DNA from: an uncultured Bacteroidota bacterium
GTDB lineage: Bacteria; Bacteroidota; Bacteroidia; AKYH767-A; 2013-40CM-41-45
NCBI GenBank assembly: GCA_963775555.1
Contig: CAVZJJ010000004.1
Location: 30,814-94,813 of the forward strand
Direction: 5' to 3'
DNA length: 64,000 nucleotides
In this document: positions 14,770 to 42,900 of the stretch, in pieces
How the letters are laid out: every line of letters begins with the position of its first letter
How positions within the stretch are numbered: the first letter of the stretch is position 1
Translations under genes and position numbers: made by a program
Notes under the pieces: model-generated
Databases searched by the model: none
Told to the model about the DNA's origin: nothing
The model's input: only the letters and a program-made list of their open reading frames with translations

Positions 14770-17748
14770 ATGAACACAACTGACAATTACCCAATGAAAA
14801 ATAAAAACAATTTCGCTGCAAGAAATTTTAGTGCAATAAAGAAACACACCATGAAATCTTACTACTCATTTTCCCGCCGGCTGTTTAACAGCCTTGTACT
14901 TATTTGCTCTTTACTCCTGATGACCGGACCATCTGCCTATAGTCAGACTGCCTTGCAGTTTAATGGAACAAACCAGTATGTAACATTTGGTGTTGCTACG
15001 AGTACCTTGGGATCATCAACATTCACACTAGAAGCCTGGATTAAAAAAACAGCAGCCGGTCTTACTGTTACTACCGGTACAGGAGGCACAGTGGCAGTGC
15101 CTGTAATTACCAAGGGTAGAGGTGAAGGAGATACGCCTGCCAATTTGAATTGTAATTATTTCCTAGGACTTACTGCGGCAGGTATTCTGACTGCAGATTT
15201 TGAGGACAAGGCCACTGGATTAAATCATCCAATTACAGGTATAGCTGTACTTGCAACAAATACATGGTATCACATTGCTGCAACATATGACGGAACTACT
15301 TGGAGATTATACCTAAACGGAGTATTGGATAATTCGCTTGTTGTAGGTGCTTACTTACCAGAAAATACAAGTATCCAGCATGCAGGACTTGCTACAGCCA
15401 TGACTTCAGCCGGCACAAGTGGGGCTTCAGGATACTTTGCCGGTGTAATTGATGAAGCGCGTATTTGGAATGTAGCCCGCACCCAGGCACAAATCCAGGG
15501 AAGCATGAACTCCGAACTTACTTCCGGCACCGGCCTCCTGGGTCGATGGGGTTTGAATGATGGAAGTGGAACTTCTGCTGCAAACTCGATTGGAGGAAGT
15601 CCGGCAGGAACACTGACAAGTGGACCTACCTGGGTAACAGGAGCGCCGGCATTGGCCCCTCCCGCCACCATACCAACAGCTCCATCAGCTCTTTCCGCCA
15701 CTGCAGTATCTCCTTTCCAGATCAATCTTTCCTGGACAGATAATTCAGGTGATGAAACTGATTTTGAAATTGAAAGATCGACAACAGGTATAGGTGGAAC
15801 CTATTCACTTTTACAAACGGTAACTGCCAATACAACAACATATAGCAGTGTAACTCTTTCTGCAAGCAGCGAATATTGTTACAGGGTCCGTGCCATAAAT
15901 AGTGCCGGTGGATCCGGTTATGCCGGGCCGGCTTGTGCTACTACAACTGCTGAAGGTGATTACGGCCTTGATCTTGGGACATCCAGTGCTTATGTTACAT
16001 TCGGTACTGCCACAGGATTAGATGTATCCGATTTTACATTGGAAGCATGGATTAAAATTGAAGGAGCTGGAGTTACCACAACCACTAGCGGAACAGGGGG
16101 TGGTGGTTTAGAAGGTGCTACGGCTGCTGTGCCTATTGTAACTAAAGGAAGAGGGGAAGGGGAAAGTCCTGCCAATGTCAATATGAATTATTTCATGGGA
16201 TTGGTTGGTAATAAACTTGCGGCAGACTTTGAAGAGGGTACAGGGCCTAATCATTCGGTGATAGGCAATGCAACCATCCCATCCAATACATGGACACATG
16301 TGGCTGCCACTTATGATCCCCTCGATGCAGTCTGGAACCTTTACATCAACGGTGTATTGGATCAGACCCTGGATATTGGTACAAACATCGTTCCTGCCAA
16401 TACAAGTATTCAGCATGCAGGTATTGGAACTGCACTCACTTCAGCAGGTGCAGCAGCTGGTTTCTTCGATGGTAAAGTAGATGAGGTAAGAATTTGGAAC
16501 TATGCAAGAACCATATCAGAAATACAAGCGACAGTGAATTCTCAGATTCTTACTTCCCAATCAGGTCTCATTGGTCGATGGGGATTGAATGACCTTACCG
16601 GAACAGTCGTGAATGGAAGTGCAGGAACAAGTTTTACAGGAACAATTGTGGGGTCAGGTTCAAGCTGGTTTACGCCGGGTGCTCCTTTCAATCTTTCTTT
16701 TGTAGCTCCATCTGCTCCAACGTTGCTTTCCCCCACTGATGCTTCTACAGGAATTGCTATTGCTCCGACCTTGAGTTGGAATGCTGCTGCAGGTGCAATC
16801 ACCTATCAGATACAAGTATCTTCCGTAGCAAATTTTGCAACAACGGTATATGACCAAAGTGGAATAGCTATAACTTCTGCTGTAGTTTCACCTGCCCTTT
16901 TAAACAATACAATTTATTACTGGAGGGTAAATGCAACAAATACTGCAGGAACAAGTGCATGGTCGTCGGTCTGGAGTTTTACGACTTCGCCAATTGTGCC
17001 TGGAGAATATGCACTCCACTTTGGTTCGGGTGGAGCTTATGTCACCTTTGGAACAGCTTCAGGTCTGGCCTCACAAAACTTCACAGTGGAGACCTGGTTT
17101 AAAAAGACAGGAGCAGGAACACCAAATACTACCGGGGGCAGCGGCATTACAATCATTCCTTTGGTCACTAAAGGATCGCCGGAAGCAGAAGCAAGTAATG
17201 TGGATGCAAACTATATTCTTGGAATTCAATCAGGCACCAATGTCATTGCAGCAGATTTTGAAGAAGGAACCGGATCTGTTAGTGCCGGATTAAACCACCC
17301 ATTGGTGGGTAGCACCGTTATAGCAGATAATGTATGGCACCACGCGGCAGTTACATTTCATAACGGAGTGTACAGTATTTATCTGGATGGAGTTCTTGAA
17401 AACACAATAAATCTAACTGCATCGGTATATCCTCAAGGGGCAAGCATACAGCACGCAGCTCTGGGAACGATGATTAATTCAACCGGAACAGCAGTTGGAA
17501 AATTCCAGGGAGTACTTGATGAAGCACGCGTCTGGAATTATGGCAGAACATTATCAGAAATACAATCCACAATTAATTCTCAAATTACAACTTCTCAAGC
17601 AGGCTTACTTGGACGCTGGAGTCTTGATGAAGGTAGTGGCACCACTGTAAGCGGCAGTGCCGGAACAAGTTTTACAGGAACTATCACCGGCACAGGTTCA
17701 AGCTGGTTGACACCGGGTCGCTCCCTTCAATATAATATTTCCCCCTGA
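14770..17748 (+). CDS. N-terminal part of the giant surface protein: signal peptide plus 3 x (LamG-like + Fn3-like) modules; terminated by a frameshift
   Basis: The likely true start is ATG 14851 (MKSYYSFSRRLFNSLVLICSLLLMTGPSAYS|Q, a Sec signal peptide). There are three paralogous LamG/Laminin_G_3-like domains (EAWIKK..., DEARIWN..., GRWGLNDGSG). They are separated by one canonical Fn3 (INLSWTDNSGDETDFEIERS) and by Fn3-like modules (LSWNAAAG..YQIQVSS..YYWRVNA..SAWSSVWSFTT). The last 10 codons are out-of-frame junk following an extra base at about 17719. Confidence 0.85.
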   Translation: MNTTDNYPMKNKNNFAARNFSAIKKHTMKSYYSFSRRLFNSLVLICSLLLMTGPSAYSQTALQFNGTNQYVTFGVATSTLGSSTFTLEAWIKKTAAGLTVTTGTGGTVAVPVITKGRGEGDTPANLNCNYFLGLTAAGILTADFEDKATGLNHPITGIAVLATNTWYHIAATYDGTTWRLYLNGVLDNSLVVGAYLPENTSIQHAGLATAMTSAGTSGASGYFAGVIDEARIWNVARTQAQIQGSMNSELTSGTGLLGRWGLNDGSGTSAANSIGGSPAGTLTSGPTWVTGAPALAPPATIPTAPSALSATAVSPFQINLSWTDNSGDETDFEIERSTTGIGGTYSLLQTVTANTTTYSSVTLSASSEYCYRVRAINSAGGSGYAGPACATTTAEGDYGLDLGTSSAYVTFGTATGLDVSDFTLEAWIKIEGAGVTTTTSGTGGGGLEGATAAVPIVTKGRGEGESPANVNMNYFMGLVGNKLAADFEEGTGPNHSVIGNATIPSNTWTHVAATYDPLDAVWNLYINGVLDQTLDIGTNIVPANTSIQHAGIGTALTSAGAAAGFFDGKVDEVRIWNYARTISEIQATVNSQILTSQSGLIGRWGLNDLTGTVVNGSAGTSFTGTIVGSGSSWFTPGAPFNLSFVAPSAPTLLSPTDASTGIAIAPTLSWNAAAGAITYQIQVSSVANFATTVYDQSGIAITSAVVSPALLNNTIYYWRVNATNTAGTSAWSSVWSFTTSPIVPGEYALHFGSGGAYVTFGTASGLASQNFTVETWFKKTGAGTPNTTGGSGITIIPLVTKGSPEAEASNVDANYILGIQSGTNVIAADFEEGTGSVSAGLNHPLVGSTVIADNVWHHAAVTFHNGVYSIYLDGVLENTINLTASVYPQGASIQHAALGTMINSTGTAVGKFQGVLDEARVWNYGRTLSEIQSTINSQITTSQAGLLGRWSLDEGSGTTVSGSAGTSFTGTITGTGSSWLTPGRSLQYNISP

Positions 17749-18945
17749 TCCACCTATATTGATTTCGCCTGCTGATATATCTACAGGTATAAATGTTTCA
17801 CCAACTCTCAGCTGGAATGCAGCGGCAGGTGCAAGCAGCTATCAGATACAAGTATCTTCCGTAGCAAATTTTGCAACAACAGTATATGACCAAAGTGGAA
17901 TTGCTATAACTTCTGCTGTAGTTTCACCTGCCTTGTTGAACAACACTGTTTATTACTGGAGAGTAAATGCAAGCAATGCATCCGGAACAAGTGCATGGTC
18001 TTCGGTTTGGAGTTTCACTACAACAGCAGCTCCGAGTCCGCTGGTCTGCCATTTACAAATGGAAGAAGGAAGTGGATCCACATTATTTGATTCTTCGACT
18101 TATGGTAATAATGGCACAACTGTGGGAAGCCCGACATGGGCGACAGGTATATTTGGTCAGGCGCTGAGTTTGAACGGATCAACTCAATATGCTACCGTTG
18201 CCGATGCAGCCAGTCTCGATGTGAGTACTTCGATTACTCTGGCTGCCTGGATTAAACCAGCAGGGGCTTCGAATACTACACAGTATGTTATTAAAAAAGC
18301 AACCCAGGGTACGACCAATGGTTATGAACTCTCTTTGTCGAGTGCAGGAAAGGTCTTTGTTCGCTTCAACCAATTTACAAGCGCGGATACCTATAGAATC
18401 AATTCAGTATCGTCTTATCCGTTGAACAGCAGTGCCTGGATGCATATCGCGGCAACGTATGATGGGACAACAATGAAGTTGTACGTTAACGGAATTCAGG
18501 AAAGCGGTAATCTTGCAGGACCGGCTGCAATTGTGACCAATACGCTGCCTCTGGGTATCGGTGCACAAGGCGATGGCGTCTCTAAATTCAACGGACTGTT
18601 GGATGATGTAAGAGTATATAACGTTGCTCTTACTTTAGCAGAAATACAAGCTTTGGCTTCTCCGCCAAGTCCAGGCTTAATTTCTCCTGCAGATCTTGCA
18701 AGCGGAGTAGCTCTTTCTCCCGGCTTAAGCTGGAATGCATCTGCAACGGCCACTTCTTATCAGGTACAGGTTTCCACGACATCTGATTTTTCCAGTACAG
18801 TATATGACCAGAGTGGAATAGCAACAACATCCACTACTGTATCACCTGCCTTGTTGAACAACACTGTTTATTACTGGAGAGTAAATGCAAGTAACGCTTT
18901 CGGAACAAGTGCATGGTCTTCAGTTTGGAGTTTTACTACAGCGGT
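14947..18945 (+). other. LamG-like x4 / Fn3-like x4 head region
   Basis: LamG-like domains lie at about 14947-15640, 15955-16680, 17005-17718 and 18040-18660. Fn3 or Fn3-like modules lie at about 15670-15945, 16710-16995, 17760-18030 and 18665-18945. The last three Fn3-like modules are about 90% identical at DNA level over parts of their length. Confidence 0.7.
17713..17731 (+). other. single-base frameshift site joining the two giant ORFs
   Basis: Here the sequence is ccgggtCgctcccttcaat. The paralogous junction at 16676-16693 is ccgggtgctcctttcaat (PGAPFN). Removing one base restores ...SSWLTPGAPFNIIFPPDPPILISPADISTG... in the frame of the 17759 ORF, which is open from 17711. Confidence 0.8.
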
Positions 18946-21900: not shown

Positions 21901-24900
21901 TGCAATCATAGTTAGTAATGTATCACACAGCGCTATTATATGCAACGGCGGAACGGCCACGGTTACCATTACTGCCGGAGGTGGAACAGCCCCACTGGCA
22001 TATACATTCAATGGTGTTGGTCCGCAGGCAAGCAACATTTTTACAGGCATATCAGCAGGTGCAGCTTATGTGTACAGTGTTAGTGATGCAAACAATTGCG
22101 ATCCTGCGACGGGAACCTTTGATGTATTGGAACCGGCAGCAATCATCTCCTCTACAACTATAACTGCATGCGACAGTTCTGAATGGAACGGTGTTTTTTA
22201 CACTTCTTCAGGAAGTTACACGACCACAGGTCTTATCAGTTCAGCCGGATGTGATTCTTCAGCAACTGTGGTACTGACTATTAATAATAGCACAAGTTCC
22301 AGTCTTTCAGTGACTGCAACGAATACTTACACATGGTCGGCCAATAGTGTTACATATACAGCATCAGGAACCTATACTGCTGTCTCGACTAATGGAGTTG
22401 GATGTACTCAAACAGATACTTTAATCCTGATAATTAATGGCAACTTCGGCAGCAATATTAGTGATGAAAATGCGCTCACAGGTAACCCGCCTTCAGAGTG
22501 GGATAATATCAGCGGCGCCGGTGACCTGAGCATACAAGGATTTGCCACCGACATCAGTGTGAATAGAGGCAACCAGGTTCGCTTTAAAATTAATACAGAT
22601 GCAAGCGCATATACAATTAACATATATCGTCTGGGTTATTACCAGGGAAATGGTGCGAGATGGGTAGGAACCGGGGTTGTTACAGCAACTTTACCTCAGA
22701 CCCAGCCGGCAGATCTTTATGATCCTGTAACGGCACTCACCGATTGTGGTAATTGGGATGAATCAGCGCATTGGGATGTGCCTTCGAATGCTGTTTCCGG
22801 AGTATACATTGCACGGTTGGAAAGAGCAGATAACAATGGTGCCAGCCACATCATCTTTATAGTACGTGATGATTCCGGAAATGCAGACATTTTATTCAAA
22901 ACATCCGATGCAACCTGGCAAGCTTACAATGGCTATGGCGGAAATAGTTTATATCCTCCTGGAGTAGGAGCATCCGGACCGCCTGCTCTCAATCACGCTT
23001 CCAAGGTAAGTTACAACAGACCTTTTTATACACGTGCTGGCGGAGGGGGATCCAGTGCTGCAGAAGACTGGGTGTTTAATGCAGAATACCCTATGATCCG
23101 GTGGCTCGAACGCAACTGTTATAATGTAAGTTATTCTACCGATGTTGACATGGACCGTGACGCAAGTCCGATCACTCCATCGATACATAAAATACTTCTG
23201 TCTGTCGGGCATGATGAATATTGGTCCGCAGCAGAAAGAACGAAATTTGAAAATGCCCGTAACTCAGGTGTTCACCTGGCTTTTTTAAGTGGCAATGAAA
23301 TCTACTGGAAGACCAGATGGGAAAACAGTATAGATGCCAGCAACACGCCTCATCGTACATTAGTATGTTACAAAGAAGGGACACTGGGTGAAAATGTATG
23401 CGGAACCAAATGCGATCCATTGTCCACGGAGTGGACAGGTCTATGGCGTGATGGTTGTGCCTATCCGGGAGCCGATGGCTGTAATCCTGAAAATGCCTTG
23501 ACCGGTCAGATCAGCTGGGTTGGAAGTACAGGTGCTATAACAGTTCCGGATACTTATAAGGCATTCCGCTTTTGGAGAAACACCAGTATTGCATCCCTTG
23601 GAATTGGTCAAACCGCCACGCTTTCCGCCAATACACTTGGATACGAATGGGATCCTGCTTCTACAAATGGAAAATATCCTTATGGTCGCATACTGCTTTC
23701 CAATACTTCACTGAGCCAAACACATAATCTATCCTTATACAGACATTCAAGTGGTGCAGTGGTATTTGGCGCCGGTACGGTACAATGGAGTTGGGGATTA
23801 GATGGTGTGCATGACATGGGAAGTTCCACTGAGGATGTGCGCATGCAGCAGGCCACGATTAATTTATTTGCGGACATGGGTGTTACTCCTGCCTGTATTC
23901 AGGCCGGCTTAGTAGCAAATTCACCCACAGATGTGACTGCACCTTTATCTGTTATTTCGTCACCGGTTAATACAGATACGCTTACTGATGGAAATACAGT
24001 ATCCATAATTGGTACAGCTTCTGATGTAGATGGAGTTGTTGCCGGAGTAGAAGTTTCCTTCGATGGCGGAACAACATGGAACCTAGCCATAGGAACTACA
24101 AGTTGGACTTATTCGTGGACACCCACAACCCTTGGAGCTACAACTATACACAGCAGGGCCTATGATGACAATGGAAATATGGAAGCTACAGGTACTGCTC
24201 CTTCGGCTAATGCAATCAATGTTATTATTACTACAGGGCCGGCTGTTGCATGTCCTTGCAGTATTTTTCAACCTTCAGATACTCCGGTAAATCTTAATGG
24301 AAATGATGGAAATGCCATTGAAGTCGGAACCAAATTTAATTCAAGTGAGAATGGTTATGTAACAGGGGTACGTTTTTATAAAGCAGCCGGAGATAACGGG
24401 ACACATATAGGTAATCTGTGGACCGGAACCGGAACCATATTAGGATCTGTGACATTCACAGGTGAAACGGCAAGTGGGTGGCAGGAAATGAGTTTTGGGT
24501 CACCAATTGCCATCAATGCAGACACTACTTATGTAATATCTTACCACAGCAGTGCTAATTACTATACATTCACTCAAAATTATTTTGCATCCGCTGTTGT
24601 AAATGGATTCTTAAAGGCATTGGCAGATGGGGAAGATGGACCGAATGGCGTCTATACTTATTCTCCATCCACTGCATTTCCAACCAGTTCATATCTAAAA
24701 AGCAACTATTGGGTTGATGTGGTATTTGACACAAGTCTGGCACCAGATGTGACCCCACCAACTGTAATTTCGGTTGTTCCGGCTAATAATGCGAGTTCAA
24801 TCAGTATAAATGCAAGCGTGAATGGGACATTCAACGAAGCAATTGATCCTGCCACACTCAGCGCCTCTACATTTGAGCTTCGTGATCCTTTGAATGCAAT

Positions 24901-27900: not shown

Positions 27901-30900
27901 CAGCATACCATTCAATGGAGCTACTATTGGTGGCACTTCACAATACATCCAGTATAAAGCAGATTTTACAACATCAAATACTGCATTTACTCCTGTATTA
28001 ATGGATGTTTCAATTGCGTGTACTACTCCACAGGACTCTCCTCCAACAGTTACTACAGATCCTTTGTCACAAACAAAATGTGATGGAGAAACAGTTTCTC
28101 TTGTATCCGGAGCCTCTGGCAATCCGTTGCCGGATGTACAATGGCAAGTCAGTACAGATAATGGATTAACATGGCAGGATCTCATTAGTGAAACCAATGC
28201 AGTTCTGACTTTCACAGTAAGTAACTCTGAAAATGGATACCAGTATCGTGCAATATGGACAAACACCTTTGGAATTGATACATCATTATCTGCTACACTA
28301 ATAGTCAATGCTGCTCCAAGCGCAACTATTATAGCTGCGAATAATCCGATTTGTCCTGGAGGTATTGTGGAGCTGCAGTTGACCGGTGCTACCGGTGCTT
28401 CTCCTTATTCAATTGTGGTGAATGGCAATACTTATTCCCCTGTAACGGCAGGAACTACCTTTGCAAGCCTGGATCCAACCGAATTCAGTATTTGGGGCAA
28501 TACAGGAAGTCCTGTGAATACAAGTGTAAACGACGGTCAGGACATTGAGGTTGGTACGAAATTCAGATCTACACTAAGTGGATATGTTAACGGAGTTCGT
28601 TTTTACAAAGGGCTCACAAACACGGCAACACATGTTGCGCATTTATGGACATCTGGCGGAACACTTTTAGCAACTGAGACATTCACTTCAGAAACTGCAA
28701 GTGGCTGGCAGGAAGTAAGGTTTACTTCTCCGGTTCCTATTACAGCGAATACTACTTATATCGTATCTTATTTTTCACCTAACCCGGGAAACTTTGCCAT
28801 AAGTGCAGGATTTTTCGCAAGTGCAGGTGTTACAAACGGACCGCTTACAGCTTTACAAGCCGGTATTGACGGGGTAAATGGTGTATATGCATATGGAGGA
28901 GGGTTCCCGAGCGGCGGAAATAATGCAAATTACTGGGTAGATGTTTTGTTCTCACAGATAGATCTGTCTATGCCACTTAGCTTTGACCTAAGTAGCATTA
29001 CAGATAATAATGGATGTATAAACACCGGTAGTCCATTGAGCAATGTAACTGTTACGGTCAATTCATTGCCTGAAGGAACGGTTTCCGCAACACCATCTAC
29101 CGTATGTGATGGTGGCGTGGTCAATCTCACATATACTTCAACAGCAGGTAGCGGACCATTTTCACTTGTTATAAATGGAATCACATATCCTAATATCATT
29201 AGCGGAATACCATTCAGTGCAGGACTTGCCAGCTATTCTGGAACTCCAGCCAGCATCTGGACGCCATCGACAGTTGGTGGTACCAATGTAGTGGATAATA
29301 CGGCAACAGAATTGGGAATACACTTCAGGTCTTCTCTTCCCGGTACAATCTCTGGTATTCGTTTTTATAAAACGGGAACTGACATATTAACCTTCACCGG
29401 TTCGCTCTGGGATTTAGGAAACACTACAATACCTTTGGCAACAGCTTCAATTCTAACAGACGCTACTCCGGGCTGGAAGCAAATTGATTTCCCTAGTCCG
29501 ATAACGATCCCTGCCAATACTACTTACATGGCATCCTATTTTTCTCCGAGTCCAAACTATTACTCTTATACTTCAGGTGGCTTATCTACGCCTGTTGTCA
29601 ATGCTCCATTGACTGCAGAATCAAGTTTTTATAAACAGCCGGGTCCTGGATTCCCTGTCAGCAATAGCACTGCCAATTATTGGGTTGATGTTGTTTTCAA
29701 CAGTGCAACTAGTATATCAACATTTAATCTCACCAGTATTAGTGGTTCTGCAGGTTGCACATCAAGCGGCAGTCCAATTAGTAGTGCCAATGTAAATGTG
29801 TTGAATAATAGTGCTTCATCATCATCCACGCCTATCACAGCCTGTGATTTGTATACATGGAATGGTGTTGCACACAATGCATCGGGTACTTATACCACGA
29901 CAGGACTTACAAATTCTGTAGGATGTGATTCATCAGCAACAGTTGTGCTGACGATCAATTACAGCTCTACATCCAGTTCAACAGAGGATGTCTGTGACAC
30001 ATATACCTGGAACGGAAATACCTACACAGTATCAGGAGTCTATACCTTTAGTTCAACGAATGCAGCAGGTTGTGATTCTACCGCTACATTGAACCTGACG
30101 ATCAGAAACAGTTCAACATCTGCGACGACCGAAGATGTATGTGATTCATATTCGTGGAACGGAACTACCTACACGGCATCAGGAACCTATACTTATTCCA
30201 CGTTAAACGAAGTTGGATGTGATTCAACGGCTACATTGAACCTGACGATCAGAAACAGTTCAACTTCCAGTTCAACGGTGGATGTTTGCGATTCGTATAC
30301 CTGGAATGGAACTACCTACACAACATCAGGAACCTATACTTATTCAACGTTGAACGAAGTTGGTTGTGATTCTACAGCCACTCTGAACTTAACCATCCGC
30401 TATGCTAGCACATCAAGCTCAACAGTAGATGTTTGTGATTCATATACGTGGAACGGAACTACCTACACGGCATCCGGAGTTTATACCTTTAGTTCAACGA
30501 ATGCAGCAGGTTGTGATTCAACAGCGACATTGAACTTAACAATCCGTTACGCTACCACTTCCAGTTCAACGGTGGATGTGTGTGATTCGTATACCTGGAA
30601 TGGAACTACCTACACAGCATCAGGAACCTATACTTATTCCATGCTGAACGAAGCAGGTTGTGATTCTACGGCCACTCTGAACTTAACCATCCGTTATGCT
30701 AGCACATCAAGCTCAACAGTAGATGTATGTGATTCATATTCGTGGAACGGAAATACCTACACGGCATCAGGACTTTATACCTTTAGTTCAACGAATGCAG
30801 CAGGTTGTGATTCAACAGCGACATTGAACTTAACAATCCGTTACGCTACCACTTCCAGTTCAACGGTGGATGTATGTGATTTATATTCGTGGAACGGAAC

Positions 30901-33900
30901 TACCTACACAACATCAGGAACCTATACTTATTCCACGTTAAACGAAGTTGGATGTGATTCTACGGCCACTCTGAACTTAACCATCCGTTATGCAACAACT
31001 TCCAGTTCAACGGTGGATGTTTGCGATTCGTATACCTGGAATGGAACTACCTACACAACATCAGGAACCTATACTTATTCAACGTTGAACGAAGTTGGTT
31101 GTGATTCAACGGCTACATTGAACCTGACGATTCGATCTGCTACAACTTCCAGTTCAACGGTGGATGTTTGCGACAGCTATACCTGGAATGGAACGACTTA
31201 CATTGCATCGGGAGTTTATACCTATAGCACAACAAATGCAGCAGGATGTGATTCGACAGCAACACTCAACTTAACGATCCGTTATGCTACCACATCAAGC
31301 AGTACAGAGGATGTTTGTGACAGCTACACTTGGAACGGTACTACCTATACTGCATCCGGAGTTTATTCGTATAGCACTCTTAATGCTGCAGGTTGTGATT
31401 CAACGGCTACATTGAACCTGACGATCAGAAACAGTTCAACATCTGCTACGACCGAAGATGTATGTGATTCATATTCGTGGAACGGAAATATCTACACGAC
31501 ATCAGGAACCTATACTTATTCCACGTTAAACGAAGTTGGTTGTGATTCTACAGCCACACTGAATCTGACGATCCGATCTGCTACAACTTCCAGTTCAACA
31601 GTAGATGTTTGCGATTCGTATACCTGGAATGGAACTACCTACACAACATCAGGAACCTATACTTATTCTACGTTAAACGAAGTTGGTTGTGATTCAACGG
31701 TTACATTGAACTTAACAATCCGTTACGTTACCACTTCCAGTTCAACGGTGGATGTTTGTGACAGCTATACTTGGAACGGAAATAACTACACAGCATCAGG
31801 AGCCTATACTTATAGCACGCTTAATGCAGCTGGTTGTGATTCAACGGCAACGCTGAATCTGACGATCCGATCTGCTACAACTTCCAGTTCAACAGTGGAT
31901 GTTTGCGATTCGTATACCTGGAATGGAGCTACCTACACGGCATCAGGAACCTATACTTATTCCACGTTAAACGAAGTTGGATGTGATTCAACGGCTACAT
32001 TGAACCTGACGATCAGAAACAGTTCAACTTCCAGTTCAACGGTGGATGTTTGCGATTCGTATACCTGGAATGGAACTACCTACACAACATCAGGAACCTA
32101 TACTTATTCAACGTTGAACGAAGTTGGTTGTGATTCTACAGCCACTCTGGACTTAACCATCCGTTATGCAACAACTTCCAGTTCAACGGTGGATGTGTGT
32201 GATTCATATACGTGGAACGGAACTACCTACACGGCATCCGGAGTTTATACCTTTAGTTCAACGAATGCAGCAGGTTGTGATTCAACAGCGACATTGAACT
32301 TAACCATCCGTTACGCTACCACTTCCAGTTCAACGGTGGATGTGTGTGATTCGTATACCTGGAATGGAACTACCTACACAGCATCAGGAACCTATACTTA
32401 TTCCACGCTGAACGAAGCAGGTTGTGATTCTACGGCCACTCTGAACTTAACCATCCGTTATGCTAGCACATCAAGCTCAACAGTAGATGTGTGTGATTCA
32501 TATTCGTGGAACGGAACTACCTACACAGCATCAGGAACCTATACTTATTCCACGTTGAACGATGTTGGTTGTGATTCTACGGCCACTCTGAACTTAACCA
32601 TCCGTTATGCTAGCACATCAAGCTCAACAGTAGATGTGTGTGATTCGTATACATGGAATGGTAATACCTACACCGCCTCAGGAACCTATACTTATTCCAC
32701 GTTAAACGAAGTTGGATGTGATTCTACGGCCACACTGAATCTGACGATCCGATCTGCTACAACTTCCAGTTCAACAGTGGATGTATGTGATTCATATTCG
32801 TGGAACGGAACTACCTACACAGCATCAGGAGTCTATACCTTTAGTTCAACGAATGCAGCAGGTTGTGATTCTACAGCCACTCTGAACTTAACCATCCGCT
32901 ATGCTAGCACATCAAGCTCAACAGTAGATGTTTGTGATTCATATACGTGGAACGGAACTACCTACACGGCATCCGGAGTTTATACCTTTAGTTCAACGAA
33001 TGCAGCAGGTTGTGATTCAACAGCGACATTGAACTTAACCATCCGTTACGCTACCACTTCCAGTTCAACAGTGGATGTTTGCGATTCGTATACCTGGAAT
33101 GGAGCTACCTACACGGCATCAGGAACCTATACTTATTCCTCGTTAAACGAAGTTGGATGTGATTCAACGGCTACATTGAACTTAACAATCCGTTACGCTA
33201 GCACATCAAGCTCAACAGTAGATGTCTGTGATTCGTATACCTGGAATGGAACTACCTACACAGCATCAGGAACCTATACTTATTCCACATTAAACGAAGT
33301 TGGTTGTGATTCAACGGCTACATTGAACTTAACAATCCGTTACGCTACCACTTCCAGTTCAACGGTGGATGTGTGTGATTCATATACGTGGAACGGAACT
33401 ACCTACACCGCATCAGGAACCTATACTTATTCCACGTTAAACGAAGTTGGATGTGATTCAACAGCGACATTGAACCTGACAATCAGAAACAGTTCAACGT
33501 CCAGTACGACTGAGGATGTGTGTGATTCGTATACCTGGAACGGAACTACCTACACAACATCAGGAACCTATACTTATTCCACGTTAAACGAAGTTGGTTG
33601 TGATTCTACCGCTACATTGAACCTGACAATCAGAAACAGTTCAACATCTGCTACGACCGAAGATGTATGTGATTCATATTCGTGGAACGGAACTACCTAC
33701 ACGACATCAGGAACCTATACTTATTCTACGTTAAACGAAGCAGGTTGTGATTCTACAGCCACTCTGGACTTAACCATTCGTTATGCTAGCACATCAAGCT
33801 CAACAGTAGATGTGTGTGATTCATATTCGTGGAACGGAACTACCTACACAGCATCAGGAATCTATACTTATTCCACGTTAAACGAAGTTGGTTGTGATTC

Positions 33901-36900
33901 GACGGCTACATTGGATCTGACGATTCGTTATGCTAGCACTTCCAGTTCAACGGTGGATGTCTGTGACAGCTATACCTGGAACGGCACGACTTATACTACG
34001 TCTGGAGTTTATACCTATAGCACGCTCAATGAAGCAGGTTGTGATTCGACAGCAACACTCAACTTAACGATACGTTACGCTACCACATCAAGCAGTACAG
34101 AGGATGTTTGTGACAGCTATACCTGGAATAGTACGACTTATACTACGTCCGGAGTTTATACTTATAGCACGCTCAACGAAGCAGGATGTGATTCAACGGC
34201 AACACTCAACTTAACGATCCGTTACGCTACCACATCGAGTTCAACAGAAGATGTTTGCGACAGCTATACCTGGAATGGAACGACTTACATTGCATCGGGA
34301 GTTTATACCTATAGCACAACAAATGCAGCTGGATGTGATTCGACAGCAACACTCAACTTAACGATCCGTTATGCTACCACATCAAGCAGTACAGAGGATG
34401 TTTGTGACAGCTACACTTGGAACGGCACTACCTATACTGCATCCGGAGTTTATTCGTATAGCACTCTTAATGCAGCAGGTTGTGATTCTACAGCCACTTT
34501 GAACTTAACCATTCGTTATGCTAGCACATCAAGCTCAACAGTAGATGTCTGTGATTCATATTCGTGGAACGGAACTACCTACACAGCATCCGGAGTTTAT
34601 ACCTTTAGTTCAACGAACGAAGCAGGTTGTGATTCTACCGCTACATTGAACCTGACGATCAGAAACAGTTCAACATCTGCTACGACCGAAGATGTATGTG
34701 ATTCATATTCGTGGAACGGAACTACCTACACAGTATCAGGAACCTATACTTATTCCACGTTAAACGAAGTTGGTTGTGATTCTACGGCCACTCTGAACTT
34801 AACCATCCGTTATGCAACAACTTCCAGTTCAACGGTGGATGTTTGCGATTCGTATTCGTGGAACGGAATTACCTACACAGCAACAGGAACCTATACTTAT
34901 TCCACGTTAAACGAAGTTGGATGTGATTCTACGGCCACACTGAATCTGACGATCCGATCTGCTACAACTTCCAGTTCAACGGTGGATGTTTGCGATTCGT
35001 ATACCTGGAATGGAACTACCTACACAACATCAGGAACCTATAATTATTCAACTTTGAACGAAGTTGGTTGTGATTCTACAGCCACACTGAATCTGACGAT
35101 CCGATCTGCTACAACTTCCAGTTCAACAGTAGATGTTTGCGATTCGTATACCTGGAATGGAACTACCTACACAACATCAGGAGTCTATACCTTTAGTTCA
35201 ACGAATGCAGCAGGTTGTGATTCTACCGCTACATTGAACCTGACGATCAGAAACAGTTCAACATCTGCTACGACCGAAGATGTATGTGATTCATATTCTT
35301 GGAACGGCACTACCTATACTGCATCCGGAGTTTATTCGTATAGCACGTTAAACGAAGCAGGATGTGATTCAACGGCAACATTGAACCTGACGATCAGAAA
35401 CAGTTCAACGTCCAGTTCAACCGTGGATGTTTGTGACAGCTACAGCTGGAATGGCAACACATACACGGCATCCGGAGTCTATACCTTTAGTTCAACGAAT
35501 GCAGCGGGTTGTGATTCTACTGCTACATTGAACTTAACAGTCCGTTACGCTACAACTTCCAGTTCAACTGTGGATGTTTGTGACAGCTATACGTGGAACG
35601 GCACAACTTACACTGCATCGGGAGTTTATACGTACAGCACCCTCAATGAAGCAGGATGTGATTCGACAGCAACACTCAACTTAACCATCCGTTATGCTAG
35701 CACATCGAGTTCAACAGAAGATGTTTGCGACAGCTATACCTGGAATGGAACGACTTACATTGCATCTGGAGTTTATACCTATAGCACAACAAATGCAGCA
35801 GGATGTGATTCAACGGCTACATTGAACTTAACAATCCGTTACGCTAGCACATCAAGCTCAACAGTAGATGTCTGTGATTCGTATACCTGGAATGGAACTA
35901 CCTACACAACATCAGGAACCTATACTTATTCCACGTTAAACGAAGTTGGTTGTGATTCTACCGCTACATTGAACCTGACAATCAGAAACAGTTCAACATC
36001 TGCTACGACCGAAGATGTATGTGATTCATATTCGTGGAACGGAACTACCTACACGGCATCAGGAACCTATACTTATTCCACATTAAACGAAGTTGGTTGT
36101 GATTCAACGGCTACATTGAACTTAACAATCCGTTACGCTACCACTTCCAGTTCAACGGTGGATGTGTGTGATTCATATACGTGGAACGGAACTACCTACA
36201 CCGCATCAGGAACCTATACTTATTCCACGTTAAACGAAGTTGTATGTGATTCAACAGCGACATTGAACCTGACAATCAGAAACAGTTCAACATCTGCTAC
36301 GACCGAAGATCTGTGTGATTCGTATACATGGAATGGTAATACCTACACCGCCTCAGGAACCTATACTTATTCCACGTTAAACGAAGTTGGATGTGATTCT
36401 ACGGCCACACTGAATCTGACGATCCGATCTGCTACAACTTCCAGTTCAACGGTGGATGTTTGCGATTCGTATACCTGGAATGGAACTACCTACACAGCAT
36501 CAGGAACCTATACTTATTCCACGTTAAACGAAGTTGGTTGTGATTCTACAGCTACCTTGAACCTGGCGATCAGAAACAGTTCAACGTCCAGTACGACTGA
36601 GGATGTGTGTGATTCGTATACCTGGAACGGTACTACCTACACAACATCAGGAACCTATACTTATTCCACGTTAAACGAAGTTGGTTGTGATTCTACAGCT
36701 ACCTTGAACCTGGCGATCAGAAACAGTTCAACGTCCAGTTCGACTGAAGATGTTTGCGATTCGTTTACCTGGAACGGTACTACCTACACAGTATCAGGAA
36801 CCTATACTTATTCCACGTTAAACGAAGTTGGTTGTGATTCAACGGCTACATTGAACCTGACGATCAGAAACAGTTCAACGTCCAGTACGACTGAGGATGT

Positions 36901-39900
36901 GTGTGATTCGTATACCTGGAACGGAACTACCTACACGGCATCCGGAGTTTATACCTTTAGTTCAACGAATGCAGCAGGTTGTGATTCAACGGCTACATTG
37001 AACTTAACAATCCGTTACGCTAGCACATCAAGCTCAACAGTAGATGTGTGTGATTCATATTCGTGGAACGGAAATATCTACACGACATCAGGAACCTATA
37101 CTTATTCTACGTTAAACGAAGCAGGTTGTGATTCTACAGCCACTCTGGACTTAACCATTCGTTATGCTAGCACATCAAGCTCAACAGTAGATGTGTGTGA
37201 TTCATATTCGTGGAACGGAACTACCTACACAGCATCAGGAATCTATACTTATTCCACGTTAAACGAAGTTGGTTGTGATTCGACGGCTACATTGGATCTG
37301 ACGATTCGTTATGCTAGCACTTCCAGTTCAACGGTGGATGTCTGTGACAGCTATACCTGGAACGGCACGACTTATACTACGTCTGGAGTTTATACCTATA
37401 GCACGCTCAATGAAGCAGGTTGTGATTCGACAGCAACACTCAACTTAACGATACGTTACGCTACCACATCAAGCAGTACAGAGGATGTTTGTGACAGCTA
37501 TACCTGGAATAGTACGACTTATACTACGTCCGGAGTTTATACTTATAGCACGCTCAACGAAGCAGGATGTGATTCAACGGAAACACTCAACTTAACGATC
37601 CGTTACGCTACCACATCGAGTTCAACAGAAGATGTTTGCGACAGCTATACCTGGAATGGAACGACTTACATTGCATCGGGAGTTTATACCTATAGCACAA
37701 CAAATGCAGCTGGATGTGATTCGACAGCAACACTCAACTTAACGATCCGTTATGCTACCACATCAAGCAGTACAGAGGATGTTTGTGACAGCTACACTTG
37801 GAACGGCACTACCTATACTGCATCCGGAGTTTATTCGTATAGCACTCTTAATGCAGCAGGTTGTGATTCTACAGCCACTTTGAACTTAACCATTCGTTAT
37901 GCTAGCACATCAAGCTCAACAGTAGATGTCTGTGATTCATATTCGTGGAACGGAACTACCTACACAGCATCCGGAGTTTATACCTTTAGTTCAACGAACG
38001 AAGCAGGTTGTGATTCTACCGCTACATTGAACCTGACGATCAGAAACAGTTCAACATCTGCTACGACCGAAGATGTATGTGATTCATATTCGTGGAACGG
38101 AACTACCTACACAACATCAGGAACCTATACTTATTCCACGTTAAACGAAGTTGGATGTGATTCAACGGCTACATTGAACTTAGCAATCCGTTACGCTAGC
38201 ACATCAAGCTCAACAGTAGATGTCTGTGACAGCTACACCTGGAATGGAACGACATATGCTACATCGGGAGTTTATACCTATAGCACAACAAATGCAGCAG
38301 GATGTGATTCGACGGCAACACTCAACTTAACCATCCGTTATGCTACCACATCGAGTGCAATAGTGGATGTTTGTGACAGCTACACCTGGAACGGCACGAC
38401 TTATACTACGTCCGGAGTATATGCTTATAGCACCCTCAACGAAGCAGGTTGTGATTCTACAGCTACACTCAATCTGACAATTCGTTATGCATCCACTTCC
38501 AGTGCAACAGAGGATGTCTGTGACAGCTATACCTGGAACGGCACGACTTACACTGCATCGGGAGTTTATACTTATAGCACGCTCAACGAAGCAGGATGTG
38601 ATTCAACGGCAACACTCAACTTAACGATCCGTTACGCTACCACATCGAGTTCAACAGAAGATGTTTGCGACAGCTATACCTGGAATGGAACGACTTACAT
38701 TGCATCGGGAGTTTATACCTATAGCACAACAAATGCAGCTGGATGTGATTCGACAGCAACACTCAACTTAACGATCCGTTATGCTACCACATCAAGCAGT
38801 ACAGAGGATGTTTGTGACAGCTACACTTGGAACGGCACTACCTATACTGCATCCGGAGTTTATTCGTATAGCACTCTTAATGCAGCAGGTTGTGATTCTA
38901 CAGCCACTTTGAACTTAACCATTCGTTATGCTAGCACATCAAGCTCAACAGTAGATGTCTGTGATTCATATTCGTGGAACGGAACTACCTACACAGCATC
39001 CGGAGTTTATACCTTTAGTTCAACGAACGAAGCAGGTTGTGATTCTACCGCTACATTGAACCTGACGATCAGAAACAGTTCAACATCTGCTACGACCGAA
39101 GATGTATGTGATTCATATTCGTGGAACGGAACTACCTACACAGTATCAGGAACCTATACTCATTCCACGTTAAACGAAGTTGGATGTGATTCTACAGCCA
39201 CTCTGGACTTAACCATTCGTTATGCAACAACTTCCAGTTCAACAGTAGATGTGTGTGATTCATATTCGTGGAACGGAACTACCTACACGACATCAGGAAC
39301 CTATACTTATTCCACGTTAAACGAAGTTGGTTGTGATTCTACAGCCACACTGAATCTGACGATCCGATCTGCTACAACTTCCAGTTCAACAGTAGATGTT
39401 TGCGATTCGTATACCTGGAATGGAACTACCTACACAGCATCAGGAACCTATACTTATTCCACGTTAAACGAAGTTGGATGTGATTCAACGGCTACATTGA
39501 ACCTGACGATTCGATCTGCTACAACTTCCAGTTCAACGGTGGATGTTTGTGATTCATATTCGTGGAACGGAACTACCTACACAGCATCAGGAGTCTATAC
39601 CTTTAGTTCAACGAATTCAGCAGGTTGTGATTCTACAGCCACACTGAATCTGACGATCCGATCTGCTACAACTTCCAGTTCAACAGTAGATGTTTGCGAT
39701 TCGTATACCTGGAATGGAACTACCTACACAGCATCAGGAATCTATACTTATTCCACGTTAAACGAAGTTGGATGTGATTCTACGGCCACACTGAATCTGA
39801 CGATCCGATCTGCTACAACTTCCAGTTCAACAGTGGATGTATGTGATTCATATTCGTGGAATGGAACTACCTACACAGCATCAGGAACCTATACTTATTC

Positions 39901-42900
39901 CACGTTAAACGAAGTTGGTTGTGATTCTACAGCTACCTTGAACCTGGCGATCAGAAACAGTTCAACGTCCAGTTCAACAGTAGATGTGTGTGATTCATAT
40001 ACGTGGAACGGAACTACCTACACGGCATCCAGAGTTTATACCTTTAGTTCAACGAATGCAGCAGGTTGTGATTCAACAGCGACATTGAACTTAACAATCC
40101 GTTACGCTACCACTTCCAGTTCAACAGTAGATGTTTGCGATTCGTATACCTGGAATGGAGCTACCTACACGGCATCAGGAACCTATACTCATTCCACGTT
40201 AAACGAAGTTGGATGTGATTCTACAGCCACTCTGGACTTAACCATTCGTTATGCTAGCACATCAAGCTCAACAGTAGATGTGTGTGATTCATATTCGTGG
40301 AACGGAACTACCTACACGGCATCCGGAGTTTATACCTTTAGTTCAACGAATGCAGCAGGTTGTGATTCTACCGCTACATTGAACCTGGCGATCAGAAACA
40401 GTTCAACGTCCAGTTCGACTGAAGATGTTTGCGATTCGTATACCTGGAACGGTACTAACTACACAACATCAGGAACCTATACTTATTCCACGTTAAACGA
40501 AGCAGGTTGTGATTCTACAGCCACTCTGGACTTAACCATTCGTTATGCTAGCACATCAAGCTCAACAGTAGATGTGTGTGATTCATATTCGTGGAACGGA
40601 ACTACCTACACAGCATCAGGAATCTATACTTATTCCACGTTAAACGAAGTTGGTTGTGATTCGACGGCTACATTGGATCTGACGATTCGTTATGCTAGCA
40701 CTTCCAGTTCAACGGTGGATGTCTGTGACAGCTATACCTGGAACGGCACGACTTATACTACGTCTGGAGTTTATACCTATAGCACGCTCAATGAAGCAGG
40801 TTGTGATTCGACAGCAACACTCAACTTAACGATACGTTACGCTACCACATCAAGCAGTACAGAGGATGTTTGTGACAGCTATACCTGGAATAGTACGACT
40901 TATACTACGTCCGGAGTTTATACTTATAGCACGCTCAACGAAGCAGGATGTGATTCAACGGCAACACTCAACTTAACGATCCGTTACGCTACCACATCGA
41001 GTTCAACAGAAGATGTTTGCGACAGCTATACCTGGAATGGAACTACCTACACAACATCAGGAACCTATACTTATTCCACGTTAAACGAAGTTGGATGTGA
41101 TTCTACGGCCACTCTGAACTTAACAATCCGTTACGTTACCACTTCCAGTTCAACGGTGGATGTTTGTGACAGCTATACTTGGAACGGAAATAACTACACA
41201 GCATCAGGAGCCTATACTTATTCCACGTTAAACGAAGTTGGATGTGATTCTACGGCCACACTGAATCTGACGATCCGATCTGCTACAACTTCCAGTTCAA
41301 CAGTAGATGTGTGTGATTCATATACGTGGAACGGAACTACCTACACGGCATCCGGACTTTATACCTTTAGTTCAACGAATGCAGCAGGTTGTGATTCAAC
41401 AGCGACATTGAACTTAACAATCCGTTACGCTACCACTTCCAGTTCAACGGTGGATGTGTGTGATTCGTATACCTGGAATGGAACTACCTACACAGCATCA
41501 GGAACCTATACTTATTCCATGCTGAACGAAGCAGGTTGTGATTCTACGGCCACTCTGAACTTAACCATCCGTTATGCTAGCACATCAAGCTCAACAGTAG
41601 ATGTATGTGATTCATATTCGTGGAACGGAAATACCTACACGGCATCAGGACTTTATACCTTTAGTTCAACGAATGCAGCAGGTTGTGATTCAACAGCGAC
41701 ATTGAACTTAACAATCCGTTACGCTACCACTTCCAGTTCAACGGTGGATGTATGTGATTTATATTCGTGGAACGGAACTACCTACACAACATCAGGAACC
41801 TATACTTATTCCACGTTAAACGAAGTTGGATGTGATTCTACGGCCACTCTGAACTTAACCATCCGTTATGCAACAACTTCCAGTTCAACGGTGGATGTTT
41901 GCGATTCGTATACCTGGAATGGAACTACCTACACAACATCAGGAACCTATACTTATTCCACGTTAAACGAAGTTGGATGTGATTCAACGGCTACATTGAA
42001 CCTGACGATTCGATCTGCTACAACTTCCAGTTCAACGGTGGATGTTTGCGACAGCTATACCTGGAATGGAACGACTTACATTGCATCGGGAGTTTATACC
42101 TATAGCACAACAAATGCAGCAGGATGTGATTCGACAGCAACACTCAACTTAACGATCCGTTATGCTACCACATCAAGCAGTACAGAGGATGTTTGTGACA
42201 GCTACACTTGGAACGGCACTACCTATACTGCATCCGGAGTTTATTCGTATAGCACTCTTAATGCTGCAGGTTGTGATTCTACCGCTACATTGAACCTGGC
42301 GATCAGAAACAGTTCAACTTCCAGTTCAACAGTAGATGTGTGTGATTCATATACGTGGAACGGAACTACCTACACGGCATCCGGAGTTTATACCTTTAGT
42401 TCAACGAATGCAGCAGGTTGTGATTCTACCGCTACATTGAACCTGGCGATCAGAAACAGTTCAACGTCCAGTTCGACTGAAGATGTTTGCGATTCGTATA
42501 CCTGGAATGGAACTGCCTACACAGCATCAGGAGTCTATACCTTTAGTTCAACGAACGCAGCAGGTTGTGATTCAACAGCGACATTGAACTTAACAATTCG
42601 TTACGCTACCACTTCCAGTTCAACGGTGGATGTTTGTGATTCATATACGTGGAACGGAAATACCTACACGGCATCAGGAACCTATACTTATTCCACGTTA
42701 AACGAAGTTGGTTGTGATTCTACGGCCACTCTGAACTTAACCATCCGTTATGCAACAACTTCCAGTTCAACGGTGGATGTTTGCGATTCGTATACCTGGA
42801 ATGGAGCTACCTACACGGCATCAGGAACCTATACTTATTCCACGTTAAACGAAGTTGGATGTGATTCAACGGCTACTTTGAACCTGACGATTCGATCTGC

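Follow-up and report, generated by a model that had tools for sequence, protein, structure and literature searches.

Silent divergence and residue constraint in a 92-unit tandem array from an uncultured Bacteroidota bacterium

Across life, pairwise dN/dS (the ratio of replacement to silent divergence) between the repeats of a protein, estimated by the Nei-Gojobori method, lies below 1, and repeats show accelerated evolution compared to vertical evolution; the physical and evolutionary distances between repeats are positively correlated (Persi, Wolf and Koonin 2016, PMC5120217). In bacterial surface stalks, near-identical DNA repeats drive changes in repeat number; these are the Periscope proteins, whose detection used cutoffs of at least 80% protein identity and units longer than 50 residues (Whelan et al. 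2021, PMC8201768). At the level of single codons, a passage of PMC6872785 describes conserved Ser positions encoded by both disjoint Ser codon sets, between which two nucleotide changes are needed. Here, we analyze a tandem array of 49-residue units in a giant open reading frame (ORF) of an uncultured Bacteroidota bacterium (GenBank assembly GCA_963775555.1). The array lies in a 64,000-nucleotide (nt) stretch of contig CAVZJJ010000004.1 (positions 30,814 to 94,813), which we call the window; coordinates below are positions within it. Four features are needed at the outset.

17759 to 44266, + strand: giant ORF of 8,835 codons that holds the array (ORF listing and domain scan)
29984 to 43507, + strand: array of 92 canonical units, each exactly 147 nt (49 residues), placed by anchoring on the Cys motif
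30278 to 30424, + strand: unit 3, a member of DNA clade B and the first example unit of an earlier reading of this DNA
33953 to 34099, + strand: unit 28, a member of DNA clade C and the second example unit of that reading

Unit k of the array starts at 29984 + 147(k - 1). There are zero insertions or deletions (indels) across the 13.5 kb, so all units are in register, and Tandem Repeats Finder reports a single array of period 147 with approximately 92 copies and 79% matches. The 92 units comprise 77 different DNA sequences and 74 different protein sequences. We consider it very likely that each of the 92 units is a small beta domain containing a disulfide, that the giant protein is secreted or exposed at the surface of a Flavobacteriales-like Bacteroidota bacterium, and that the units descend from one founder through duplication, silent divergence under purifying selection, and recombination. 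We infer the disulfide, as well as a surface stalk or fiber role for the array protein.

By the same measure that Persi et al. used (PMC5120217), dN/dS between units of this array is also below 1; however, the constraint here is strong (0.06 to 0.15), and the correlation with physical distance is absent. With Periscope proteins (PMC8201768), the locus shares a long tandem array of small structured domains, a mean protein identity of 85%, and a giant surface-type protein. Like them, it also breaks the rule that adjacent domains have <50% identity. It differs from them in that mean DNA identity is only 0.778, adjacent units are at most 95% identical, and the unit, at 49 residues, falls just below the length cutoff.

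Constraint and predicted fold of the unit

We calculated Nei-Gojobori dN/dS for 4,186 pairs of the 92 units. Averaged over these pairs, protein identity (0.846) exceeds nucleotide identity, the proportion of differing silent sites (pS) is 0.55, the proportion of differing replacement sites (pN) is 0.11, and dN/dS is approximately 0.12. Because the method scores a Ser switch between TCN and AGY codons as two replacement steps, pN is partly inflated, and dN/dS falls to 0.063 when these switches are scored as silent. A parsimony count of events on a tree of the 77 distinct units, which avoids pseudo-replication, gave 371 silent and 171 replacement events on 36.6 and 110.4 sites, respectively, for an omega (dN/dS) of 0.15. 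Omega is 0.13 on internal branches and 0.19 on terminal branches, and ranges from 0.07 to 0.16 between the deep DNA clades and from 0.12 to 0.13 within them. A sequence-only reading of the window had proposed a codon-wise dN/dS comparison of the units as a check on its claim of constraint; the comparison gives 0.06 to 0.15 overall and 0.07 to 0.16 between clades, and a value near 1 was not seen. Its description of the repeat subfamilies as differing almost only at synonymous sites is right in that silent divergence dominates, but overstated, as the clade consensus sequences differ at 4 to 8 of 49 residues, in addition to 14 to 25 further codons that differ silently.

Replacement changes cluster in approximately 10 tolerant columns of the unit (1, 8, 12, 16, 27, 43, 44, 47, 48), and approximately 20 columns never change residue across the array. 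In a per-column tally, the immovable residues include C4, W9, N10, Y14, Y20, N26, C30, D31, S32, T35, L36, and R41. Columns 31 to 33 read D-S-T in each unit, with D31 and S32 invariant and T33 present in 91 of 92 units. The Bacteroidota O-glycosylation motif is D-(S/T)-(A/I/L/V/M/T), which D-S-T matches, and putative glycosylation could add constraint on these three columns.

The case for silent divergence had first been made from units 3 and 28, and the quoted pair is real. The two strings are present at 30278-30331 and 33953-34006, encode the same peptide VDVCDSYTWNGTTYTTSG, and differ at 14 nt in 12 of 18 codons, with a Ser family switch at codon 6 (tcg in unit 3, agc in unit 28). Over their full length, the two units differ at 38 nt and three residues. 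Chance is excluded as the cause of this silent pattern: of 1,000,000 sets of 14 random substitutions in the 54-nt stretch, not one was fully silent, and 200,000 random substitution sets over the full units gave no case with three or fewer amino acid changes. However, the pair sits in the upper tail of its distribution. In the 331 unit pairs whose first 18 residues are identical, the DNA of this stretch differs at a median of 3 nt, with 10 or more differences in 19% of pairs and 14 or more in 10%; units 3 and 28 belong to the most divergent pair of clades (pS 0.71). The peptide GCDSTATLNLTIR has 29 encodings across 69 units.

Both Ser codon families are in use at column 6 (TCA 33, TCG 29, AGC 27) and column 23 (TCC 40, AGC 24, AGT 20), as well as at columns 44 and 48. 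Relatives often have Thr at column 6 (ACT, 73 units), and at column 23 Thr is their predominant residue (ACA 141, ACT 86); column 44 of this array has TCC, ACC, and AGC side by side. The claim that a Ser family switch needs multiple steps is correct to the extent that two steps are required, but relatives commonly carry Thr at these columns, and Thr offers a one-step bridge that is tolerated. The codons present suggest a route from TCY to ACY to AGY, which would cross between the Ser families through tolerated Thr in two single steps. As in the cases described in the passage of PMC6872785, conserved Ser occurs in both codon sets; here, in contrast, the switches are among paralogous units of one gene, and the Thr intermediate is visible in sister arrays.

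We modeled one unit with its flanks (30260-30439) in AlphaFold2, using 146 diverse homologues from approximately 100 loci (column identity averages 62%, and the Cys pair, Trp, Gly, and Leu never vary). The model has five strands and a mean predicted local distance difference test score (pLDDT) of 81.4, and a single unit is thus confidently predicted to be a five-strand beta domain. Strand 1 of the model is the Ser/Thr-rich tail of the preceding unit, which suggests that this tail segment is probably not a floppy linker. The unit had been proposed to be a folded, functionally constrained domain and not drifting low-complexity sequence, a proposal supported by the dN/dS values, by the balance of silent over replacement events, and by the single-unit model.

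The unit has no match above threshold or curated cutoff in Pfam, NCBIfam, or the PDB sequences, and its atlas neighbors are unnamed Bacteroidota clusters. Structural neighbors from VIA are Ig, Rib, and PKD-like sandwiches with Z of 3.8 or less. Searched against PDB sequences, the family profile gives only a weak match to the F-G strands of titin I-set domains (E 0.0035). The points of contact with titin Ig I-set domains are this weak F-G match and the Ig-, Rib-, and PKD-like structural neighbors; the unit is approximately half the length of an Ig domain, and the scores are at noise level. The top Foldseek rows, which are weak, are fragments of the Aureispira grappling-hook protein GhpA (E 0.6, TM 0.44). 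GhpA is another giant Bacteroidota surface protein, and with so weak a match it serves as a lead only.

Origin and rearrangement of the array

Average-linkage clustering of unit DNA separated four deep clades at 22% distance (B, 49 units; A, 20; C, 17; D, 6) and 28 subfamilies at 10% distance (90% identity). The sequence-only reading had described at least two old DNA dialects of the unit. Distinct dialects do coexist, but the structure is richer than two, with three to five deep clades, 28 subfamilies, and mosaic units. The dialects are old on a mutational scale, but not old enough to have saturated: codons for the same residue differ in 39% of cases over all pairs (48% in pairs with <80% identity), compared to the 62 to 65% expected at saturation for an identical protein with the codon usage of this genome. 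The value is also below that for two housekeeping genes of the window compared to their orthologues in three congeners (67 to 81% protein identity), in which 50 to 62% of codons differ and pS is 0.74 to 0.85. The silent sites of the array are therefore below saturation.

Four codons are fixed in 92 of 92 units (GAT at column 2, TAT at 20, TGT at 30, GAT at 31), and a fifth, GGA at column 18, is present in 91 of 92. The same five vary freely in the other arrays of the genome and in 765 foreign units, and we therefore rejected nucleotide-level constraint as the reason for their invariance. Arrays also group by gene, with mean identity of 0.78 inside this array, approximately 0.70 between arrays, and 0.86 for the best cross-array match. 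On these grounds we rejected the possibility that the dialects are common to several genes and hence older than the arrays. Given unsaturated silent sites, shared founder codons, and clustering by gene, the dialects arose inside this array from one founder unit, and they appear to postdate the divergence from the nearest sampled congener. A search for an orthologous array for dating found no match at E 1e-20 in five congeners for the 747 residues before the array; the syntenic contig of the nearest congener stops approximately 6 kb beyond the shared genes, and the arrays of relatives end at contig edges. Several codons are strongly enriched in the array relative to both the remainder of the gene and neighboring genes: AAC (0.70 compared to 0.27 to 0.37), ATC (0.69 compared to 0.23 to 0.36), CGT (0.59 compared to 0.22 to 0.25), and GGA (0.71 compared to 0.44 to 0.46). 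We read these skews as founder effects.

Clustering gives different results for the first, middle, and last third of the unit, from which it follows that units are recombinant mosaics produced by in-register exchange. Mapped along the array, clades C and D form short recurring runs (units 9-10, 28-31, 51-54, 57-61, 74-75, and 83-84), and these runs are multi-unit block copies: units 4-10 match 78-84, units 26-33 match 49-56 and 72-75, and units 29-34 match 59-64. The exact runs are 532 to 601 nt long, start mid-unit, and lie at offsets of 7, 23, 30, 46, and 74 units. Adjacent units, in contrast, have DNA identities of 0.65 to 0.95, and only distant multi-unit blocks are identical. These exact blocks could support changes in array length.

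30480 to 31080 and 41358 to 41958, + strand: 601-nt exact repeat, 74 units apart, part of the block shared by units 4-10 and 78-84
34151 to 34750 and 38561 to 39160, + strand: 600-nt exact repeat, 30 units apart
37582 to 38113, + strand: 532-nt exact copy overlapping the 34151 to 34750 stretch, 23 units away
33728 to 34281 and 40490 to 41043, + strand: 554-nt exact repeat, 46 units apart

The history that we propose begins with one founder unit, whose duplication led to growth of the array, followed by point mutations in each unit. Purifying selection on the fold would purge approximately 85 to 95% of amino-acid-changing mutations; divergence would be mainly silent because most such changes are removed. 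Ser codons would cross from TCN to AGY by way of the tolerated Thr intermediate. In-register recombination shuffled segments between units to give mosaics, and also copied blocks of 4 to 7 units to distant sites in the array, quite recently.

Weighing the alternatives

Several results weigh against this history or limit how firmly it can be held. Recombination between units breaks the tree model, so the event counts are approximate. Nei-Gojobori estimates are noisy on 49 codons, and 554 of the 4,186 pairs are saturated at silent sites; the dN/dS values come from these pairs and from parsimony counts. A three-unit structural model built on a shallow 56-row alignment was poor (pLDDT 46), and the single-unit model has no clear solved-structure match, with no Foldseek match at E 0.001 or better. 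Neighboring units resemble each other no more than random pairs do (mean identity 0.79 and 0.78, respectively; permutation P 0.58), and similarity is flat with distance along the array (Spearman rho -0.03, Mantel P 0.13). A flat profile is unusual for locally duplicating arrays (PMC5120217), and simple aging does not fully explain it. We considered selection for extra divergence between neighbors, but rejected it, as shuffling of the unit order gives the same P of 0.58.

The most probable of the alternatives makes silent divergence itself the object of selection or of a survivorship filter: arrays in which units share long exact matches would collapse by homologous recombination or slippage, and very long arrays would persist only with scrambled codons. 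It would be a natural analogue of the codon scrambling used in synthetic repeat genes, and if it were true, the flat profile of similarity with distance would be the footprint of the recombination filter. When two units are compared in register, their longest exact match has a median length of only 20 nt, and approximately 20 nt is close to the shortest match at which RecA recombines efficiently. In addition, the usual excess of similarity between neighbors is missing, the longest array seen is also diverged in DNA, and repeat number is known to vary where repeats are highly identical (PMC8201768). However, neighbors are not extra-diverged compared to random pairs, exact repeats of 532 to 601 nt persist inside the array, and the family forms a smooth continuum that includes 22 units at 99.6% DNA identity. 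For most amino acids, codons are not used more evenly inside the array than outside it, and unsaturated silent sites with founder codons are what plain aging predicts. We therefore consider such a filter unlikely and see nothing that positively favors it. Its stronger form, in which silent-site scrambling is a precondition for very long arrays because recombination prunes long exact matches, such that approximately 90 units would need codon divergence, seems to us similarly improbable.

Translational selection could in principle spread approximately 750 Ser and 1,070 Thr codons over isoacceptor tRNAs to guard against their depletion. All six Ser codons are in use, and the N-terminal part of the gene uses the four Thr codons less evenly (0.38/0.17/0.14/0.32) than the array does (0.30/0.24/0.24/0.21), but the codons of other amino acids are more skewed in the array (AAC, ATC, CGT, and GGA, as given above), which fits founder effects, and codon choices are linked into clades and not balanced independently. 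This makes translational selection a very improbable cause. Still harder to credit is an artefact of error-prone or strain-mixed metagenome assembly, which might be suspected from the 4-contig assembly with 82% completeness and the small indels that fill a sister array on contig C3, given that errors would not spare replacement sites (dN/dS 0.1; no fully silent set among 1,000,000 random ones), that one frame runs through the 26.5-kb ORF and all 92 units with zero indels, and that dozens of independent assemblies show the same pattern.

The domain family and its host gene

Low dN/dS between units recurs in the wider family. The genome (4.2 Mb, 41% GC) holds 211 units in five or six genes, and each of its in-frame arrays, four others besides this one, has pS of 0.41 to 0.58 and omega of 0.06 to 0.17. 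The domain is present in 81 of the 121 genomes of the order that we searched. Across the species collection, we confirmed at least 574 stretches; they belong to Flavobacteriales (Crocinitomicaceae, Cryomorphaceae, Fluviicola, Lishizhenia), Chitinophagaceae, Cytophagales, and Bacteroidales. Uncultured Flavobacteriales-type metagenome-assembled genomes (MAGs) are the nearest relatives. We compared 62 arrays with at least five units from approximately 100 Bacteroidota loci. They form a continuum of nucleotide identity from 0.996 down to 0.54, with a median omega of 0.16, which is predicted by repeated expansion followed by aging under purifying selection. At one end are 22 units with 99.6% DNA identity; arrays like this one (protein identity 0.85 to 0.96, DNA identity 0.80 to 0.90) lie in between, and at the other end protein identity is approximately 0.5. 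The 92-unit array is the longest seen. It is an aging member of an ordinary series of birth and divergence.

Individual arrays illustrate different stages and states. An uncultured Flavobacteriales MAG (CALSUJ010000001.1:21569-28141) has 22 consecutive units with 100% protein and 99.6% DNA identity, and this array is a Periscope-like recent expansion. In the genome studied here, a 2,945-codon gene (C4:2010124-2018958) has a young sub-array of alternating 49- and 50-residue units, the latter 99% DNA-identical, which adjoins an older, diverged sub-array (pS 0.46). The sister array on contig C3 (C3:161069-167509) has 44 units of 138 to 151 nt in three reading frames, with well-conserved cores. 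Domain units also occur on records labeled Methanobacteriota archaeon, Asaia bogorensis MAG, and Glaciecola amylolytica; these three records may be mislabeled or mis-binned, or may reflect gene transfer.

Outside the canonical array, the host locus carries further copies of the unit and a candidate N-terminal segment.

29842 to 29983, + strand: degenerate unit, 5' flank of the array
43508 to 43633, + strand: degenerate unit, 3' flank of the array
22166 to 22436, + strand: two diverged unit copies in the N-terminal part of the giant protein
14770 to 17748, + strand: upstream ORF of 992 codons with a signal-peptide-like start, three LamG modules, and Fn3

The count of 94 units given by the sequence-only reading is reached when the two flanking degenerate units are added to the 92 canonical ones. 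The first approximately 4,000 residues of the giant ORF contain LamG, three DUF4082, DMFA2_C, Big_5, and Ig-like modules, and its C-terminus has a weak likeness to dockerin. The ORF has no signal peptide, and its start falls within an Fn3-like module (17690-17775 region). The upstream ORF stops 10 nt before it, in another frame, and has the same LamG and Fn3 module types. The two are probably one gene of approximately 9,840 codons, split by a frameshift that is either real or an assembly indel, with the upstream ORF as the true N-terminus.

Taken together, these results describe purifying selection acting on a tandem domain in an ordinary way, though at an unusually large scale; evolutionarily, the pattern is expected rather than surprising. 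With 92 paralogous copies under one constraint, the array can serve as a natural deep mutational scan, internal to one gene, of a small beta domain that is unannotated and widespread in Bacteroidota. It also indicates that high protein identity of adjacent domains can last for a long time without DNA identity, and the question of misfolding between similar neighbors is thereby separable from the recombination argument made for Periscope-type repeats.

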